A DNA stretch of 64,000 bases. Source: Eledone cirrhosa (taxonomy: Eukaryota). A program made the position numbers and the translations under genes. The stretch lies in contig OZ024755.1 of assembly GCA_964016885.1 (NCBI GenBank), positions 34,472,001-34,536,000 on the forward strand, read 5' to 3'. This document shows, piece after piece, positions 7,270 to 64,000 of this stretch (the stretch's first letter is position 1; every line of letters begins with the position of its first letter). Below the pieces are notes generated by a model, which was not told the DNA's origin, did no database searches, and worked only from the letters and a program-made list of their open reading frames with translations.

Positions 7270-7336
7270 TATATTTTGTCTGATGAAAACGTACTTAAAC
7301 ACCATTGAACCTTTGAAATATGTATAATAAAATATA
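7270..7336 (+). ncRNA. Degenerate type I hammerhead ribozyme motif (probable PLE pLTR remnant)
   Basis: Stem I TATATTTTGT/ATAAAATATA (10 bp, one G-U); core CTGATGA at 7280 and GAAA at 7315; near-palindromic ATATGTAT; stem II poorly paired; lies just after a (TA)n tract. Confidence 0.5.
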
Positions 7337-19179: not shown

Positions 19180-20843
19180 GAGGAAATGAAACGTGGTAAG
19201 GCTGCTGGACCGTCTGGATAGTTGCTGAGATGCTGAAGGCATCAGGAAAAGTAGGAACAAAACTGGTTGCATGCATAGTCAATCAAGCTATATATAGCGG
19301 TGTCATGCCCAAAGACTGGTGCAGCAGTATTCTCATAAATTGCTACAAAGGTAAAAGGGATACTCTGGAGAGGAGCAATTATAGGGGCATAAAACTGATA
19401 GATCAAGTTATGAAAGTGACATTAAGAATGCTAGCACAACTAATTAGGGAAAGGGTCAAATTAGATGAGATGCAGTTTGGTTTTGTGCCTGGAAAAAGTA
19501 CAACAGATGCCCTCTACTTAGTGAGACAACTACAAGAGATGTTCTTAGAGAAGAATAAGCCACTATACTTAGCTTTTGTTGACATAGAGAAGGCCTTTGA
19601 TAGGGTACCCCGATCTGTCATCTGGTGGTCCCTAATGAAATTAGGTGTAGAGGAATGGCTTGTGAGGACAGTGCAACCAATGTATAGAGGTGCTGTCAGT
19701 AAAGTGAGAGTAGGAATGGAGTTTAGTGAGGAATTCCAGATAGGAGTGCATCAGGGTTCAGTCCTCAGCCCACTCTAGTTCATTATAATTCTCGAAGCCA
19801 TAACAGAGGAGTTTATGACTGGCTGTACATGGGAACTTCTCTATGCCGACGATCTGGTATTTATAGCAGAATCAGTAGAGGAGCTAGAGAATAAACTCTG
19901 GCTATGGAAACAGCAGTTGGAATCAAGAGGACTGAGAGTGAACCTAGCTAAGACAAAAGTGTTGATAAGTAGAAAAGAGGACAAAACTCTGATTCCACCA
20001 GGGAAATGGCTATGTGTATGTAGAAAAGGAGTTGGCATAAATTCTATAGAATGTACACAATGCAGATCTTGGGTACACAAGAGATGTAGTGGGATAGCAG
20101 GCAAACTAACAGGTAGGGAGAAATATGTATGCAGTAGATGTACAGGGAAATTTGATAGTAGAAGTGGCAGTGATAGACACATTTTTCAAATGCAGGTAGG
20201 ATCTATAGAGGTGGTTGATAGCTTCCAATACCTAGGTGATCAGATTAACAAGGGAGGAGGGAGCTCCGAGGCCATAGTATCTAGAATAAGGACGGGTTGG
20301 AAGGAGTTTAGGGAGCTGCTTCCTCTGTTGACAAAGAAGAGTTTCTCCCTATGAACAAAAGGCTGGTGATATGATGCCTGTGTGAGATGCACGATACTGC
20401 ATGGTAGTGAGACATGGGCAGCAACTGCGGAGGATATGCGACAGCTGGAGAGAAATGAAGCAAGCATGCTCCGATGGATATGCAATGTCAATGTGCGTAA
20501 ACAACTAAGCATAGTCAAGTTGAGAGAGAAACTGTGTATAAGAGGGATAAACTGTAGTGAGCAGGAGAGCAGACTGCGTTGGTATGGGCATGTGAATCAC
20601 ATGGAGGATGCCCGCTGGGCAAAGAAGTGCCAAGAAATCCCAGAAGAAGGAAGACGCAATAGAGGAAGACCATGAAAATTGTGGGCGGAGGTGTTGAGAA
20701 CAGACCTCAGATCGCTGAAGTTCACAGAGGAAATGACGAAGGAACATGACGAATGCAGAGATGCTGTGCTGAAAAGGCCCATCCCACCCTTGCAAGCAGG
20801 GAAAAGCAGACGTAAGATGATGATGATGATGATGATGATGATG
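19180..20843 (+). mobile_element. 5'-truncated RTE-clade LINE: reverse transcriptase pseudogene with internal PHD-like finger and (TGA)n tail
   Basis: GKAAGPSG, NYRGIKL, QFGFVPGKSTTDA, LAFVDIEKAFDRV, GVHQGSVLSPL, LLYADD, FQYLGD, HGSETW, RLRWYGHV, GRP; in-frame stops. Confidence 0.96.
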
Positions 20844-31929: not shown

Positions 31930-33013
31930 GCAGCCTACCACTATTAGCCGCTAAAGGGTTCTCCCTAAAAATGAAAGGCAGGTTGTATGATGCCTGCATA
32001 CGAACAGCAATGTTGCATGGCAGTGAGACCTGGGCATTGTGTGCAGAGGATATACGCAGACAAGAGAGGAACGAAGCTTGCATGCTCAGCTGGATGTGTA
32101 ATAGTAATATACGTGAACGGCAAAGCATAAACGAACTAAGGGAGAAATTAGGAATAAGAGGGATCAGATGTTGTTTACTCGAAAGAAGGCTACGTTGGTA
32201 CGGTCATGTGATGCGCATGAAAGACGATAGCTGTATAACAAAGTGCAGGGCAATAAAGATAGACGGTAGCCACGGAATAGGCAGACCCAGAAAAACCTGG
32301 GACGAGCTGATAAATTCCGACCTCACACACTTACACCTCTCCAAGACAATGTCACTGGACCGAGACCTTTGGCGGTACTCAGTAATAGAGAAGACCCGCC
32401 TTACCTAAATACAAAGTAAAACCTACTACAGTCAGTAGGCATCTCTAACAAAATACACCCCCGTCCCACCACCCCCACCCCATCCACACCGCCCCTTTCA
32501 ATGTAAAGTTATGTTGGTGCCACAACATCCAGGCCGAAACAAATGAGATCGTGTAGGTGTCACGACAAAAAAACACACAGTTCACGCTGTAATGTGGCCG
32601 TGTAGGCAACACGGTAAAAACCTCCCAGTCCCACACTGTAAATGTGGTTGGTGTTAGGAAGGGCATCTAGCTGTAGAAAACCCGCCAGACAGTCCACGCT
32701 GTAATGTGGCCGTGTAGGCAACACGGTAAAAACCTCCCAGCCCCACACTGTAAATGTGGTTGGTGTTAGGAAGGGCATCCAGCTGTAAAAAACCCGCCAG
32801 ACAGTCCACGCTGTAATGTGGCCGTGTAGGCAACACGGTAAAAACCTCCCAGCCCCACACTGTAAATGTGGTTGGTGTTAGGAAGGGCATCCAGCTTTAG
32901 AAAACCCGCCAGATAGTCCTATGCGAGCAAGATAATCACTCTTGCCTCAAGTGGGAAAACCCCCGTCCAAACGCATGCAAGCATGGAACACGGACGTTAA
33001 ACGTTGATGATGA
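31930..33013 (+). mobile_element. RTE LINE 3' end: ORF C-terminus, long 3' UTR with a 112-bp triplication, TGATGA tail
   Basis: LYDACIRTAMLHGSETW...RRLRWYGHVMRM...GRPRKTWDE; the UTR contains GGTTGGTGTTAGGAAGGGCATCCAGCTGTAGAAA. Confidence 0.92.
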
Positions 33014-33713
33014 AGTTGTCATGTAGGTATCACGACAAAAAGCACCCAGTCCACACTGTAAATGGTGGGCTTGCAAAAATAGGTCTTAGTTTCAAGTCTT
33101 GTCACGAAAATAATTCAATGTATTTTTATTTAGATGCTTTACCTATTTGTTTATTTTTATGGATCTTTGGAGAGCCATAAAAGTAGCTAGTTATATATTT
33201 GAAGTTTGTAATCCACCTCTTAGCTGTCAAACATCATCTATACAGATTTAATTATGTACTGGAGTTTTTATATTGGTTTGTCTTTTCATAACAGTTATTA
33301 TGTCATAGCAAGTTTTTTTTATGAGTTATGTATTGTAAAGGGTATCCATATTGATAACTACATTTCTTTTGTCGGCTTCCTTAATTATAAAGCCAGTACT
33401 GTATAGTTCTTTGAGATTTGTTCATTCTAGTCTTTAGAAATTTGATCTTATATTCCTCATTTCAACAGTATTGATTGGAAAAATAGATAAGTAATCACAA
33501 AAATTATCCAGTGCTTCATTTCTTCCTTTTGGGGGGAAAAAGTTACTTTTATTTTGGACTATTGATTCGTCATCAACTTTATCTTTTTCAGTTAATCTTA
33601 GTTTATCACAAAATTCTGTGATATGGGTCTTAAGTTCTGGTATATTAGATTTTTGTTAGGTAGGTGTAAACTTCAACTTTATATATATATATGTGTATAT
33701 ATATATACATATA

Positions 33714-34036
33714 TCATCATCATCATTTTACGTCCGCTTTTCCCTGCTTGCAATGGTGGGACGGGAACTGATTCTGGCTTGATTTCTACAGCTGGATGCC
33801 CTTCCTAACACCAACCTCATTTACAGTGAGTGCTGGGTGCTTTTTTGCCGTGGCACCTCCACAACCACTTTGCAGTGGAATGATAGGGACCCCAGTCCCT
33901 ATCATCTCATTTCTACAGCTGAGTAAACTGAAAGCAATGTGAAATAAAGTGTCTTGCTCAAGGAAACAACACATCACCCGGTCTGAGAATTGAACTCACA
34001 ACCTTTTGATTGCAAAGCCAATGCTCTAACCACAAA
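33714..34036 (-). mobile_element. SINE family B (head cut at the (TA)n/fold-back junction)
   Basis: Reverse complement of 3584-3919. Confidence 0.9.
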
Positions 34037-34274
34037 GTTATATATATATATATAATTAAGTTAAAAATGTACATCCACATATGTATACTGAAATACTAGT
34101 ATGCATATGAATACACACACGTGTACATATGTAGATGTACCGAGTTTTTCACTGGTCACTTTACTGTGAGTGTCCAGCTATTCTGTATGTAAACACACAG
34201 ACAAACCGGTTTTTAGAGTCATACTGGTTTTTGAGGAAACACCTTTCCTCTATTCTCCAGAAAGCCAGACAAGG

Positions 34275-34319
34275 AATATTGGACTAGTTTCGATGTTGTT
34301 ACATCTCATCAGCAATATT
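34275..34319 (-). ncRNA. Minimal type I hammerhead ribozyme (left-arm copy)
   Basis: Exact reverse complement of 34659-34703. Confidence 0.9.
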
Positions 34320-34658
34320 TACCTATCTTCCGGCCTTTCTAGAGAATCGTAAAAGCACATATCGTTATATGCTTTTTCTTTGAAAATTAGTAGTGGGCAG
34401 ACTAATTTGCATAGAGCGTGAGTACGTACCGGTTCAACGGAGACGATAAAAACAAATAACGAAACGAAATTAAATACAAAAGTGAGTTACAAACGAAACA
34501 AAATTTAATTTTGTTTCGTTATTTGTTTTTATCGTCTCCGTTGAACCGGTACGTACTCACGCTCTATGCAAATTAGTCTGCCCACTACTAATTTTCATAG
34601 AAAAAGCATATAACGATATGTGCTTTTACGATTCTCTAGAAAGGCCGGAAGATAGGTA

Positions 34659-34703
34659 AATATTGCTGATGAGATGTAACAACATCGAAACTAGTCCAAT
34701 ATT
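34659..34703 (+). ncRNA. Minimal type I hammerhead ribozyme, intact
   Basis: AATATTG-CTGATGA-GATGT(AACA)ACATC-GAA-ACTAGT-C-CAATATT: 7-bp stem I, perfect core, 5-bp stem II, palindromic ACTAGT stem III, GUC cleavage triplet. Confidence 0.92.
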
Positions 34704-34992
34704 CCTTGTCTGGCTTTCTGGAGAATAGAGGAAAGGTGTTTCCTCAAAAACCAATATGACTCTAAAAACCGGTTTGTCTGTGTGTTTACATACAGAATAG
34801 CTGGACACTCACAGTAAAGTGACCAGTGAAAAACTCGGTACATCTACATATGTACACGTGTGTGTATTCATATGCATACTAGTATTTCAGTATACATATG
34901 TGGATGTACATTTTTAACTTAATTGTTTAAGCGTCAGTCATACAAAAGTGAGTTACAAACGAAACGAAATTTAATTTCGTTTCGTTATTTGT

Positions 34993-35035
<43 letters not shown>

Positions 35036-35655: not shown

Positions 35656-36036
35656 TATTAATGCTTTACAATGTATTGAGTAATTTACTTACTGCGATTA
35701 CCCCCGATTGAACCTGGGATACACACACGTGTGTGTGTGTGTGTGTGTATGTGTGTGAGTTAGGTTATATTGGAGTTTACCAATATATATTCTGGTAAAG
35801 ATAACAGAAGCTCAATGCTAATCAATATCCTCGGTCAATCAGTAACCCTGCTTCTAAATCTGCTTTTGATTACACCTTCTGTTACTTTTAAATGTAATAA
35901 CACTTGACTGTCTTTTCCCATAAGAGTCTAATCTGTATTATAATGAGACTTTTGCTTGCTTGTATCTGGATGTAACAACATTTATACTCCTGAAGATATA
36001 TAGAGCCAGCTGTCCGACATTGAAACTTTTATAGAG

Positions 36037-36940
36037 TAAAATCATGTCAATCCATACACGCCGGTCAATATATGAAAACAAAAACTGGAAAAATATTCCC
36101 AAATGTAAATATGAACTGCAAAAGCAGAAATCTAATTTACTGCATTAAATGCCCGAATTGTGAAGAACTATGTGTCGGTCAAACTGGAAATGCACTATCA
36201 GAACGTACACGGGTACACCGACAGCAAATCAGAGACCCAAATGTCCGTCAGATACCCCTAAGTAACCATCTAGCAACATGTGATCAGGGAATATTTATAA
36301 TATTCCCATTCTACAAATTACACAGCCCAAGTGAAATCAAGAGAAAAATCAAAGAAAAGAATTTTATTGATAAATTCAAACCCAAGCTAAATGAACAATA
36401 ATAATGCTTAGGGGTATTACTTCTACTATGACTATGACCACTAACAACAACAACAACAATAATAATAATAAAAGTGATGTTGATGGTGATGATTACTAGA
36501 AAATGCTATTTTCATCATTTCTAAAAATAGCAAAACAATTGATGCTTTGGATAGGATCAATTACTGGTCATTAAACATGCTCAACCAACCGGGACGCCTA
36601 AACCAATCAGCTTTAGTAATTCAGTGAAACTACACACTGATTGGTCGAAATACAGTTTGCAAGATTTAGCATTCTGGAGCCACTTTTCACTGTAAATAAG
36701 GTACAAAATTTACCCATCTCATTACAGTTGAAAATTGCAAACTTGACTGTCACCACACATTATGAACCTGAAGATTGCGAAAGCATGAAAGTACTTGTTC
36801 AATTAACACTTAACATTTAATACTCTATCATACTATTTCATTATAATACCATTATAAATTTTAAAGGATTGTAAATAAAATGAGTAAATCAGACAAAGTT
36901 GGAATTCCTCTTATTAATATAATCTTCTATACACAATCAT
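36037..36940 (+). mobile_element. Penelope-like element 3' end: GIY-YIG endonuclease (36072-36401) plus pLTR with hammerhead
   Basis: NCKSRNLIYCIKCPNCEELCVGQTGNALSERTRVHRQQI...LSNHL...KRKIKEKNFIDKFKPKLN: GIY-YIG with CCHH residues typical of PLEs; no RT portion present. Confidence 0.88.
36763..36801 (+). ncRNA. Minimal type I hammerhead ribozyme
   Basis: TGAAC-CTGAAGA-T-TGC(GAAA)GCA-T-GAA-AGTACT-T-GTTCA: 5-bp stem I, GNRA-capped stem II, palindromic AGTACT. Confidence 0.82.
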
Positions 36941-60449: not shown

Positions 60450-63400
60450 ATGAATACTGATAATAAAAGCAGTGAACTACAGCGGCGACGGCGTGCAGCC
60501 AACAATGAAGAAAAACAGGCCGAATAGTGCCATCGGAACGCTGAACTTCAGAGGCGAAGACGTGCCGCCATGAATGAAGAGGAACTGGCTGAACAACGCC
60601 AACGAAATACTGGAGCCAAGCAGCGACGGCGTGCTGCAATGGTTGAAGACGAAGTGGCTGAGCATCATTAGCAGATGGCCGGAATTCAGCAGCAACGGCA
60701 TGCTGCGATGGATGAAGAGGAGCTGGCTGAACAGCGCCAGCGCAATACAGATGTTCAGAGATTGTGTCGCCAAAGTGCTCCTCATTCCAGTAAAGAGGCT
60801 AGAAGACGAACGGATCATATTAAAAATGGATCATGGCAACCGTGTCATTTTCAGATTGGAGGACGAGCAGAGTGTCCACATTGTGGAACATTGCTTTGGA
60901 GGCACGAAAAGACGTGGACCACAATGTGCGGTCATAAAGGAGCAGTTCAACTAGAACCCTTGCGAATGCCAGAGAGTTAGTGAGATGTTTGAGAATGGAG
61001 CATGGCAACCGAATGTAGTCATTCAAGGCCATTTGTATCATTGTATCGGTAATTTAGAAGTTACCCCAGGAGAGAGGCCTCGATTCGCTTAAATTTACGT
61101 TAACGATCCAGATTATAGTGAATCGGAGGAGGATATCAGGATCGGTTGGATGAAGTTGCCGGGAAATATAACTGAACTTGAACGGCTTAGACAGTGTAAT
61201 CCTTATGTTATGGATTTCATGTTGGTGGCTGAACTGCAAAATGTTCAGCAGCAAACATTGGTGATTAAGGCTGACGCAGTGCCAAGGAATCAACACGAAT
61301 GGCGATATAATGCCCCTGAGGGATTTCGTGAAGTTGCTGTGTTGATGGACGATAAACCTGGATCGAGAGATATCATCCTCAATCGCAGAGATGGTGGTCT
61401 CAAGACTATCAATGAGTCAAATAGGGCATACGATCCATTGCATTATGTTCTTTTATTACCAAAAGGTGAAAATGGATGGAACATGTCTGTTAATTTAGAT
61501 GATCATGAGAATCAGCATCAACAGGGAAGCGGCAATAGACACAATAATTTGATTCACGATTTTTAGGCGTTCCATTTGAACGAGAGGAATCAACAGAGAA
61601 ATGCGCTATTTAAAGCCAGCAGATTGTTCCAGGAATACTGTTGTATGGCATTCGCAAAGATCGAAAATCAAAGGCTAAATTATATAGCTACACATCAGCA
61701 ACATATCAGAGCTGAATTGTATAATAACAAGCAAATTGGTCGACGCATCATTTTGCTATCGTCGTTCATCGGCGGCCCGAGATATATGAACATTCGCTGT
61801 CAGGATGCAATGGCTATTGTCAGAAAGTTTGGAAAGCCAGATTTGTTTATAACGGTTACATGCAATCCTGAATGGTCTGATATTAAGGATGCACTTTTGC
61901 CAGGACAACAGCCAAAAGACCATCCTGATATTGTAGCAAGAGTATTCAAAGGATATCTGAAAAATATAATGGATGATGTGGAAAAAGAGGGAATCTTTGG
62001 AGGTATAGTTGCGTTTACATACGTAATTGAATTCCAAAAAAGAGGATTGCCACATGCACATTTGCTGATCATTTTATATAGAGATTGCAAATTGTGATGT
62101 GCTGAGGATGTCGACAGCGTTGTGTGTGCTGAACTGCCGGAGAATGAGGCACTATGCAACTTGGTGGCAAAGTCAATGGTGCACAACCAATGCGGAGTGG
62201 CAAATCGGAAAGCGCCTTGCATGAAAAATGGCCAATGCAGTAAGCACTTTCCGAAATCTTTTGTCACGAACACTTCCTGGAACGATGGGGATGCTCATCC
62301 CTCATACAGAAGACGGTCACCTGCAGATGGCGGTTTGGTCGAAAATGTAAACGGTTGACAAGTTACAAATCAATGGGTTGTGCCATACAATCCATATTTG
62401 ATTATGAAATATCGTTGTCATATTAATGTGGAAATTTGTAGCTCAGTGAAAGCTTGCAAAAATCTATTCAAATATGTTTATAAAGGTCATGATCGGGCAA
62501 TGATCAATGTTAGGAATGCGGAAGCGAACCAAGGAGATGAAGTTGGCAGGTTCCAGGATGTTCGCTCGATTGGATCTAGCGAAGCTTGCTGGAGATTGTT
62601 CGATTTTGATCTCAATGAATGCAAACCCAGCGTTCAGAAACTGACGGTTCACTTAGAGAATAGGCAAATGGTCTGTTTTCAGGACACTAGAAGAGGTATC
62701 GAAAGAATTGCTAACGCTCCACCTCCTAAGACGGAATTGACTGAGTGGTTCAAGCATAATAGGGAACATGCTTTGAACCCGGATCAAAGGCAACTCTACT
62801 GCGATTTCCCTTCGCACTATACGTGGGATAAGAAGGGAAAGAAATGGAATGATAGAAAACAAAAGTTGAGATTCATGACTATTGGACGGGTTTGTAATGT
62901 CCATCCAGCATCTGGTGATGTGTTTTATCTCCAAATTCAGTTGCATACTGATTTTTCGAGAGATAAACAGAGCTTCGCTGATTTGAAAACAATCAATGGC
63001 GTGGAATATGAAACATACCAGGCTGTGTGTCAGCATCTGGGACTCCTTCAGGATGACGCTGAATGGAATAACGCCATGGAAGTTGCAGGAACAACACAGA
63101 TGCCAGATCAAATAAGGTAGTTGTTTGTCACGATTCTAGGATTCTGCAATCCTGCCGATCCAAGAGAGTTATTTGAACGCCATTGGGGAATTATGGCTGA
63201 TGATTTTAGGCATCATCTTCAGGTCGATGATGAAAATTTGATGAAAGCTATTGTTTTGCTCAATATTGAGCAACTGCTTGAAGTTCATTTCAAATGTTTA
63301 ACAGATTTCAATTTGCCAATTCCTGATGAAGAAATGCAGCAATGTGTCTTAGCATTGAACATGAGATTGCAGCTTAGACGGTTGCCACTCGATCGGAGGG

Positions 63401-64000
63401 AACTATTCCAGTTTGATCCACTGGAACAGCATCGTATTGTGGATGAACATATGCCAATGTTGACCCAATCTCAGAGAGAATTGGTTGATGGTGTTCTCCA
63501 CTCGATTTCCACTAATGAGCAACTTTGTGCTTTCATAGATGCTCCAGGAGGCACCGGATAGACATTCTGTTTCAACACTATGTTATCGGCAGTCAGAGCT
63601 CAGAGGAAGATTGCTCTCCCTGTGGCCACCAGTGGGATCGCTGCCACATTGCTGAGTGGTGGAAGGACCTTCCACTCATGCTTTAAGGCTCCATTGGCTC
63701 CGGATAAGTTGAATGTATTAACATTACAGGACAAAGTGAACTCGCGGGCCTTATACGCAATACGCCTCTGATTATTTGGGACGAGGCGCCAATGGCACAC
63801 AGATATTTGCTGGAGGCATTGGATAGAACTTTGAGAGATATCTGCGGTAGTGACCTGCCATTCGGTGGTAAGACTATCGTTCTTGGTGGCGATTTCAGAC
63901 AGGTGCTACCAATTGGTAGGAATGCTCAAAGAGCGCAAATTGTCGATGCATGTCTGAAAAAGACCCCGTTGTGGCGCCATTTCAGAGTTTTGCGATTACA
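60450..64000 (+). pseudogene. Helitron Rep/helicase (RepHel) transposase, pseudogenised; continues past the window end
   Basis: N-terminal CPHCG..LW..E Zn motif; YDPLHYVLL; Rep motifs PDLFITVTCNPEW, VIEFQKRGLPHAHLLI, HINVEIC...LFKYVYKG; PIF1-like [49 protein letters not shown]; several nonsense codons in one frame. Confidence 0.96.

Follow-up and report, generated by a model that had tools for sequence, protein, structure and literature searches.

The window, the 64-kb stretch of DNA analysed here, is repeat-rich and of animal type, with about 36% GC; judged by the look of the flanking repeats, the host may be a cephalopod. A Pfam scan of 106 of its 121 open reading frames (ORFs) returned only transposon domains and one weak zf-LYAR match. 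Among the repeats are a Helitron remnant with Helitron_like_N and PIF1 helicase domains (61567–63998, plus strand), the remnant of a LINE-type reverse transcriptase (RT) followed by a PHD finger (19200–20351, plus strand), and a SINE-like segment repeated in tandem as three copies of 112 bp (32574–32919), with an inverted occurrence at 33773–33875. Positions 34054–34995 form a palindrome with two inverted arms of 422 bp each, 34054–34475 and 34503–34924, around a 27-nt spacer. A first-pass annotation had counted about three differences between the arms, and we find exactly three substitutions, at 34466/34512, 34380/34598, and 34224/34754; a repeat finder reports arms of 427 nt at 99%, counting 5 nt of the TA-side extension.

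The left arm (34054–34475, minus strand) is an inverted, 5′-truncated copy of 422 nt corresponding to positions 34503–34924 of a longer unit. Its outer end coincides with one of two recurrent family ends described below (family end A), and its inner end is the apex of a 13-bp hairpin (34492–34520, plus strand). The plus-strand copy is 522 nt long, or 1.12 units of 466 nt, and had already been recognized as longer than one unit: the segment 34474–34529 recurs at 34940–34995 (56 bp, period 466) with two differences, 34500 A versus 34966 G and 34512 T versus 34978 C. The full unit occupies 34474–34939 (plus strand), and the two copies are joined through a 2-nt AT microhomology (34474–34475). The 13-bp hairpin lies within the redundant segment beside the inversion point, as originally described, and carries two CpG-type changes in this copy (34500 and 34512), with the pair preserved. 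Its second copy, at 34958–34986, is contained together with the 56-nt redundancy 34940–34995 in a 71-nt "tail" (34925–34995, plus strand), which is delimited by the sequence and by contig ends in sequencing run X1 and spans the interval between the two family ends. The (TA)n reported on both flanks is likewise present, at 34039–34053 on the left and, as (AT)n, at 34997–35032 on the right; we read both tracts as remnants of the target.

The unit is non-coding and strongly self-paired. Read as a concatemer, its longest ATG-started ORFs are 19 aa on the plus strand and 50 aa on the minus strand, in keeping with the earlier statement that there is no convincing protein ORF, and tblastn with 10 Penelope-like element (PLE) proteins gave zero matches within 34054–34995, where an ORF combining RT and GIY-YIG domains is absent. 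The 466-nt unit has 35% GC and a minimum free energy (MFE) of −150.7 (z of −9.5 against shuffles); its circular fold is also predicted to be stable, at −149 to −151 kcal/mol, and a long hairpin (z of −5.3) is predicted just inside family end A, at 34838–34909 on the plus strand. Rfam matches to miRNA families were rejected as a reflection of the long hairpin. The elements TCAGTC (34934) and GTGAGT (34482 and 34948), which we take to be initiator-like and donor-like, respectively, were given no weight, as about one such initiator is expected by chance.

Each arm holds a type I hammerhead motif, and the two read outward. In the right arm (34648–34719, plus strand; predicted cut after C34696), which is identified by a descriptor scan and by alignment to Rfam Hammerhead_HH9, the motif consists of the core CUGAUGA at 34666–72, helix II at 34673–86, GAAA, ACUAGU at 34690–95, C34696, and a helix I formed by AAUAUUG and CAAUAUU. 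The mirror motif in the left arm (34259–34330, minus strand; predicted cut after C34282) has its core from 34312 and is found by the descriptor and by HH9 at 38.9 bits. The elements that define a type I core, CUGANGA, GAAA, and NUH with helices I and II, are thus all present. Helix I has 6–7 bp, helix II has 4–5 bp, and helix III, the only weak one, has 1 bp closed by a palindromic CUAG loop. The descriptor gave 0 matches in 60 shuffled 64-kb windows and 0 in 3000 shuffled units.

Across 34659–34703, where the motif had first been placed, the HH9 model (RF02275) aligns over its whole length with 38.9 bits (E of 4e-9), matching in both arms and staying below the gathering score of 52; no Rfam family reaches its gathering score anywhere in the 64-kb window, and RF00163, the family originally named, is absent from an output in which overlapping clan matches are collapsed. 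The alignment shares with HH9 the core, the G10.1–C11.1 pair, the GUC triplet, a 4 × 3 internal loop in helix I, and a 6-nt loop II. HH9 is an ultraconserved intronic motif, whereas the present one is borne by a repeat and its helix III lacks the 5-nt loop of HH9. The description of a "textbook minimal type I hammerhead" in each arm therefore stands as to type and is revised as to size: the motif contains ACUAGU, and A9 directly adjoins G10.1, so this is not the PLE minimal form (Cervera 2014), which has no helix III and an extra base at 9/10.1. Judged on sequence features, the canonical loop sizes fit retrozymes better than the PLE minimal form, as these are set apart in PMC4209133. Another hammerhead-like motif, at about 7270–7336 (plus strand), combines a helix I of 10 bp with a weak helix II and is probably a decayed copy of a different family.

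The catalytic fold of the monomer is predicted at −15.6 kcal/mol versus −23.0 kcal/mol for the free fold, a gap of about 7, which suggests a weak self-cleaver as a monomer, and the ribozyme is predicted to need a tandem partner on the same strand. Hammerheads with a comparably weak helix III are reported to work as dimers in the sections of PMC4209133 and PMC7229834 on such motifs. The palindrome had been called a head-to-head dimer; however, as a ribozyme dimer this does not hold, as the two hammerheads lie on opposite strands and therefore form no dimer in cis. Read-through RNA has an MFE of about −775 kcal/mol, and every base of the motif is predicted to be paired in the 422-bp duplex, whichever strand is transcribed. 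A read-through RNA carries one sense ribozyme, and the antisense copy is predicted to pair with the whole of it; the locus alone therefore cannot make a circle by double cleavage. The predicted requirement for a tandem partner on the same strand makes the locus a likely dead end that would give a 422-bp hairpin as read-through RNA. It is itself most likely an inert repeat and at most a source of long double-stranded RNA.

We considered whether the palindrome could be an assembly or library fold-back artefact, with the family itself being real. Inverted PLE insertions are known to trouble assemblers, according to the portion of PMC8557442 that deals with them, and the centre junction of this locus is not among the joints listed when contigs are aligned on 34474–34960. 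Against this, the three arm substitutions are each confined to a single arm, and the centre lacks symmetry. The palindrome also ends exactly at a family end, without extending into the flanks, whose two sequences are unrelated. We therefore regard an artefact as very improbable. Of 21 family-variable sites, 19 are identical in the two arms; at the other two the right arm has changes of its own, and the remaining arm difference (34380/34598) is absent from the listed family variants. At the level of sequence, this agreement speaks for a single recent event with a few later point mutations; of the two options first offered, young or homogenised, it favours a young insertion.

The unit is not confined to this locus. 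Twenty of the 24 public sequencing runs listed (17 studies), none of which is on record as RNA, contain part of it, and four of the 24 were aligned to 34474–34960, a comparison outside which the flanks and left arm of the locus lie. In run X1, 1,183 contigs were placed on the unit, with a summed depth (not a copy number) of 1.8–6.7 × 10^5 in all 29 bins, which implies a very abundant, diversified family. The head-to-tail joint from 34939 back 466 nt to 34474 occurs in X4 and X7, two of the four runs aligned. The X4 joint belongs to a single 495-nt contig that starts at 34533, ends at 34562, and is closed by a 30-nt overlap; it bridges both junctions, crossing the one at 34529/30 with 56 and 33 letters on its two sides. 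Because the closed 466-nt unit is found in independent contigs, the 466-nt period belongs to the family and not to this locus. These data uphold the original proposal of a non-coding hammerhead retro-element: the unit closes head-to-tail in independent contigs, is very abundant, and has no ORF. Closure in an assembly graph does not prove a circular molecule, since partial-tandem DNA looks alike.

The X4 closed contig has a depth of 9.7 and its own changes (four A>G, one T>C, and one deletion), and the second run of the same sample contains none of the unit. It could stem from a related contaminating source or represent an RNA circle that was edited; RNA editing, to which four A>G of five own changes might speak, is not claimed, as the kind of run is not on record. 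Nor do we claim a wide host range or horizontal spread from the many organism labels, for which cross-contamination from a high-copy source is the simpler and most likely explanation: in the raw Hi-C run X22, labelled as organism C, 0 of 12.8 million reads (∼1% of the run) match, though organism C contigs hold half of the words, and X7 mirrors the variants of X1 at about 1/1000 of its depth or less. An exact 29-mer of the unit gave 0 matches in metagenome contigs, and phage records contain no match to the unit. Five matches to an 18-mer in viral contigs extend over 34 nt at most and were taken as chance or unrelated.

The ribozymes had been described as intact, which is true of this copy and less so of the family. 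The GUC cut triplet is kept here and in the X4 closed contig; the commoner allele at the cut site is U (GUU), with 223,362 of 295,067 in summed depth in X1 and 137 of 207 in X7. The helix II mismatch allele T34685A is common as well (75,731 of 233,758 in X1), and in X7 both alleles occur together on one contig, so that a large subfamily may possibly carry a ribozyme with a weakened sequence. The density of variants in the motif, two listed sites in 45 nt versus 19 in 442 nt elsewhere, is no lower than in the rest of the unit and gives no sign of selection on cleavage.

Loose ends of contigs in X1 locate the boundaries of the family. Among the best six of 38 loose-end rows, three contigs leave the unit for (AT)n behind 34532 (equivalent to 34998), which is the tail end, and five leave it for (TA)n at about 34924 (row behind 34929), where the X1 consensus has a longer (TA)n run than this locus. 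These two recurrent family ends beside (TA)n coincide with the outer ends of the present insertion, at about 34924 and about 34995. The same best six of 38 include two further fold-back junctions, at 34698 and 34904, with one contig each; both lie at short palindromes, and beyond them the contigs continue as the reverse complement of adjacent unit sequence. The remaining two of the best six of 38 resemble internal indel variants. As the fold-back centres differ in position, the palindrome appears to be made anew with each insertion.

This last point bears on the notion of a DNA-level fold-back element or satellite, either MITE-like or an inverted duplication driven by a cruciform, in which the hammerhead would be a passenger. 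The flanking TA and the long inverted repeats recall TA-targeting DNA transposons, and the many hairpins would suit such an element. Its termini, however, are unlike, one of them having the 71-nt extension, the unit is a direct and closable repeat, and the other fold-back centres lie at different positions. We hold an origin of this kind to be improbable.

PLEs have left traces close by, as evidenced by broken ORF pieces 1 kb away on either side of the palindrome, at 33066–33676 (minus strand) and 36006–36398 (plus strand; GIY-YIG). Both match proteins with RT and GIY-YIG domains that carry a CX2–5CxxC linker and a CCHH motif, features that, as far as sequence goes, are Neptune-like. The minus-strand piece (33066–33679) is a broken N-terminal part of an ORF of similar type, which reads away from the palindrome and starts beside a TA tract; the plus-strand piece (36006–36401) is the C-terminal GIY-YIG remnant of a Neptune-like PLE, ∼60% identical to P0001/P0004. 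These remnants show past activity of endonuclease-bearing PLEs in this genome. Directly upstream of the GIY-YIG remnant lies a second decayed hammerhead-like motif (35980–36042, plus strand); a word of 13 nt in front of it is the same as in helix II of the palindrome ribozyme. The 3′ region after the remnant, about 36400–36830, contains a by-eye hammerhead-like motif near 36768–36806 that both Rfam and the descriptor missed. Comparison of the neighbouring PLE 3′ region with the unit gave only shared words of chance length, up to 14 nt, and thus no autonomous partner sharing the unit sequence in that region; none of 66 candidates for related PLE loci in metagenome contigs was confirmed.

The proximity of these remnants raises the question of whether the palindrome is simply what an autonomous PLE ordinarily leaves behind as a truncated pLTR palindrome, with no independent non-coding family behind it. 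The structure would then combine a 5′-truncated pLTR and its tail with the inverted copy that usually accompanies them and with a short second copy, re-initiated, which supplies the first 56 nt. PMC3846280 does describe tailed pLTRs, both solo and inverted, as common, and the loose-end evidence draws on the best six of 38 rows, beside which a minority branch into an ORF might exist. The 34529/30 junction, on the other hand, is not private to this locus: the X4 closed contig bridges it, and the depth in X1 shows no drop there. No ORF-like end occurs among the best-supported six of 38 loose ends, and the ribozyme has the canonical loop sizes of retrozymes and not the PLE minimal form (PMC4209133). 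On balance, we find this explanation unlikely.

We conclude that the locus is probably a young copy of an abundant non-coding 466-nt hammerhead repeat, a non-LTR retrozyme, inserted into (TA)n in trans by PLE machinery. The fixed ends, the other fold-backs, and the agreement of the arms at 19 of 21 sites all count in support of this reading. The insertion has the features of the PLE type, namely an adjacent inverted 5′-truncated copy in head-to-head orientation, a tail at one end that spans recurrent ends, and a microsatellite target, and mobilisation in trans by a PLE RT/GIY-YIG protein, as first suggested, is therefore likely, the insertion matching the published PLE footprint. The tail, at 71 nt, is longer than the 30–40 nt usually reported. 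The fold-back and tail are that published footprint (PMC8557442; PMC3846280) and nothing peculiar to this element. The unit also has the features of a non-LTR retrozyme: it is non-coding, a few hundred nucleotides long, below 50% GC, and self-paired, with one type I hammerhead and a head-to-tail joint. The rule of two consecutive hammerhead units (Li 2026) fails at this locus, which has 1.12 units and one sense hammerhead.

In the mechanism that we propose, a PLE reverse transcriptase and GIY-YIG endonuclease would act in trans on the unit. The endonuclease would nick both strands of (TA)n, and each nick would prime cDNA synthesis from one of two fixed positions within the unit (34995 and 34924); with two such start sites, only one end would carry the 71-nt tail. 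One cDNA would have stopped at the hairpin apex (34503) and the other at 34474, after which joining through the 2-nt AT microhomology would yield the palindrome, although a single cDNA that primed itself would account for it equally well. The template would have crossed the ribozyme site and thus been an uncleaved multimer or a ligated circle instead of a cut linear monomer, because the plus copy spans the predicted cut site and reaches 223 nt upstream of it. The proposal that the element was copied from a circular or tandem RNA is accordingly sustained in that the template was longer than one unit, and left undivided in that a circle and an uncleaved linear multimer fit equally; in our judgment there is a slight preference for the multimer.

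A stricter form of the retrozyme reading holds that the family spreads via a closed 466-nt RNA generated by dimer-dependent cleavage, on which the PLE RT ran 1.12 laps from a fixed start. The enzyme would have two starts 71 nt apart, be primed from both (TA)n strands, continue past a full lap of the circle, and sometimes come off at the cut site. The copy spans the cut site and exceeds one unit, the unit closes in contigs and its circular fold is predicted to be stable, and the X1 contig that folds back at 34698 does so a single nucleotide away from where the cleavage product is predicted to have its 5′ end, a hint of cleavage in vivo from a single case (n = 1). Animal retrozymes, moreover, produce circRNAs, as PMC7229834 reports. 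Several points weigh against a circle: partial-tandem DNA, too, yields closed de Bruijn contigs, the family often carries variants at the cut site and in helix II, the 34698 junction, which lies on a self-complementary hexamer, may have arisen as a library chimera, and in the experiments described in PMC11167929 the Anolis PLE RT mainly used uncleaved RNA. We therefore put the circle forward only tentatively, both as the form in which the family spreads and as the template of the two-start scheme, and the limited probability that we give it is a share of that given to the retrozyme reading. If true, the lap around a circle would be sequence-level proof that Penelope enzymes integrate animal circRNA retrozymes, for which the arguments so far have been co-occurrence and phylogeny, and would define a 71-nt cis element.

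The individual elements of this scheme have precedents. Endonuclease-bearing (EN+) PLE insertions have an inverted 5′-truncated copy beside the upstream repeat, a tail at one end, and a (TA)n bias (PMC8557442); PLEs form palindromes at head-to-head junctions and work in trans on sequence flanked by pLTRs (PMC3846280). In vitro, the Anolis PLE protein cleaves the two target strands and extends each of them, starts at two internal RNA positions whose interval is the tail, and prefers unprocessed RNA, with no need for ribozyme cleavage (PMC11167929). That retrozymes are non-autonomous PLE derivatives or passengers has already been proposed (PMC7229834; bioRxiv 10.64898/2026.07.22.740005; review PMC7761336). 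In literature searches covering Penelope, retrozymes, and hammerheads in octopus and cephalopods, we found no prior description of this family.

With the metazoan non-LTR retrozymes, as these sources portray them (PMC7229834; bioRxiv 10.64898/2026.07.22.740005), the family shares a non-coding, low-GC, self-paired unit of a few hundred nucleotides with one type I hammerhead, head-to-tail closure, and coexistence with PLEs; the weak helix III and palindromic tetraloop are those of axolotl HHR_Amex1. It differs from them in having 1.12 units and an inverted copy where theirs are usually long tandem arrays, and in its fixed family ends at (TA)n. Its 466 nt exceed the 150–450 bp first described for metazoan retrozymes and fall within the 51–972 bp of Li et al. 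With EN+ PLEs, in the descriptions given by PMC3846280, PMC8557442, and PMC11167929, it has in common the head-to-head inverted 5′-truncated copy, the palindrome at the inverted junction, the tail at one end only, the microsatellite target, and the hammerhead in a terminal repeat, whereas it has no RT/GIY-YIG ORF, and its 71-nt tail recurs upstream in the unit, as in a closed monomer. Non-autonomous PLEs of Chlamys such as MRC1 are, like it, non-coding passengers that form pLTRs and head-to-tail copies; in contrast, those algal elements are similar to the 3′ end of autonomous ones and, in the part of PMC8557442 that treats them, most are without canonical hammerheads. As a best reading from sequence, then, the family behaves as a non-LTR retrozyme that PLE machinery would mobilise. 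That PLEs mobilise animal retrozymes, and do so from RNA in circular or multimeric form, is treated as a hypothesis to date in the sources cited above (PMC7229834; bioRxiv 10.64898/2026.07.22.740005), and by joining a closed ribozyme unit, the full PLE footprint, and fixed ends, this family makes the PLE–retrozyme hypothesis testable.
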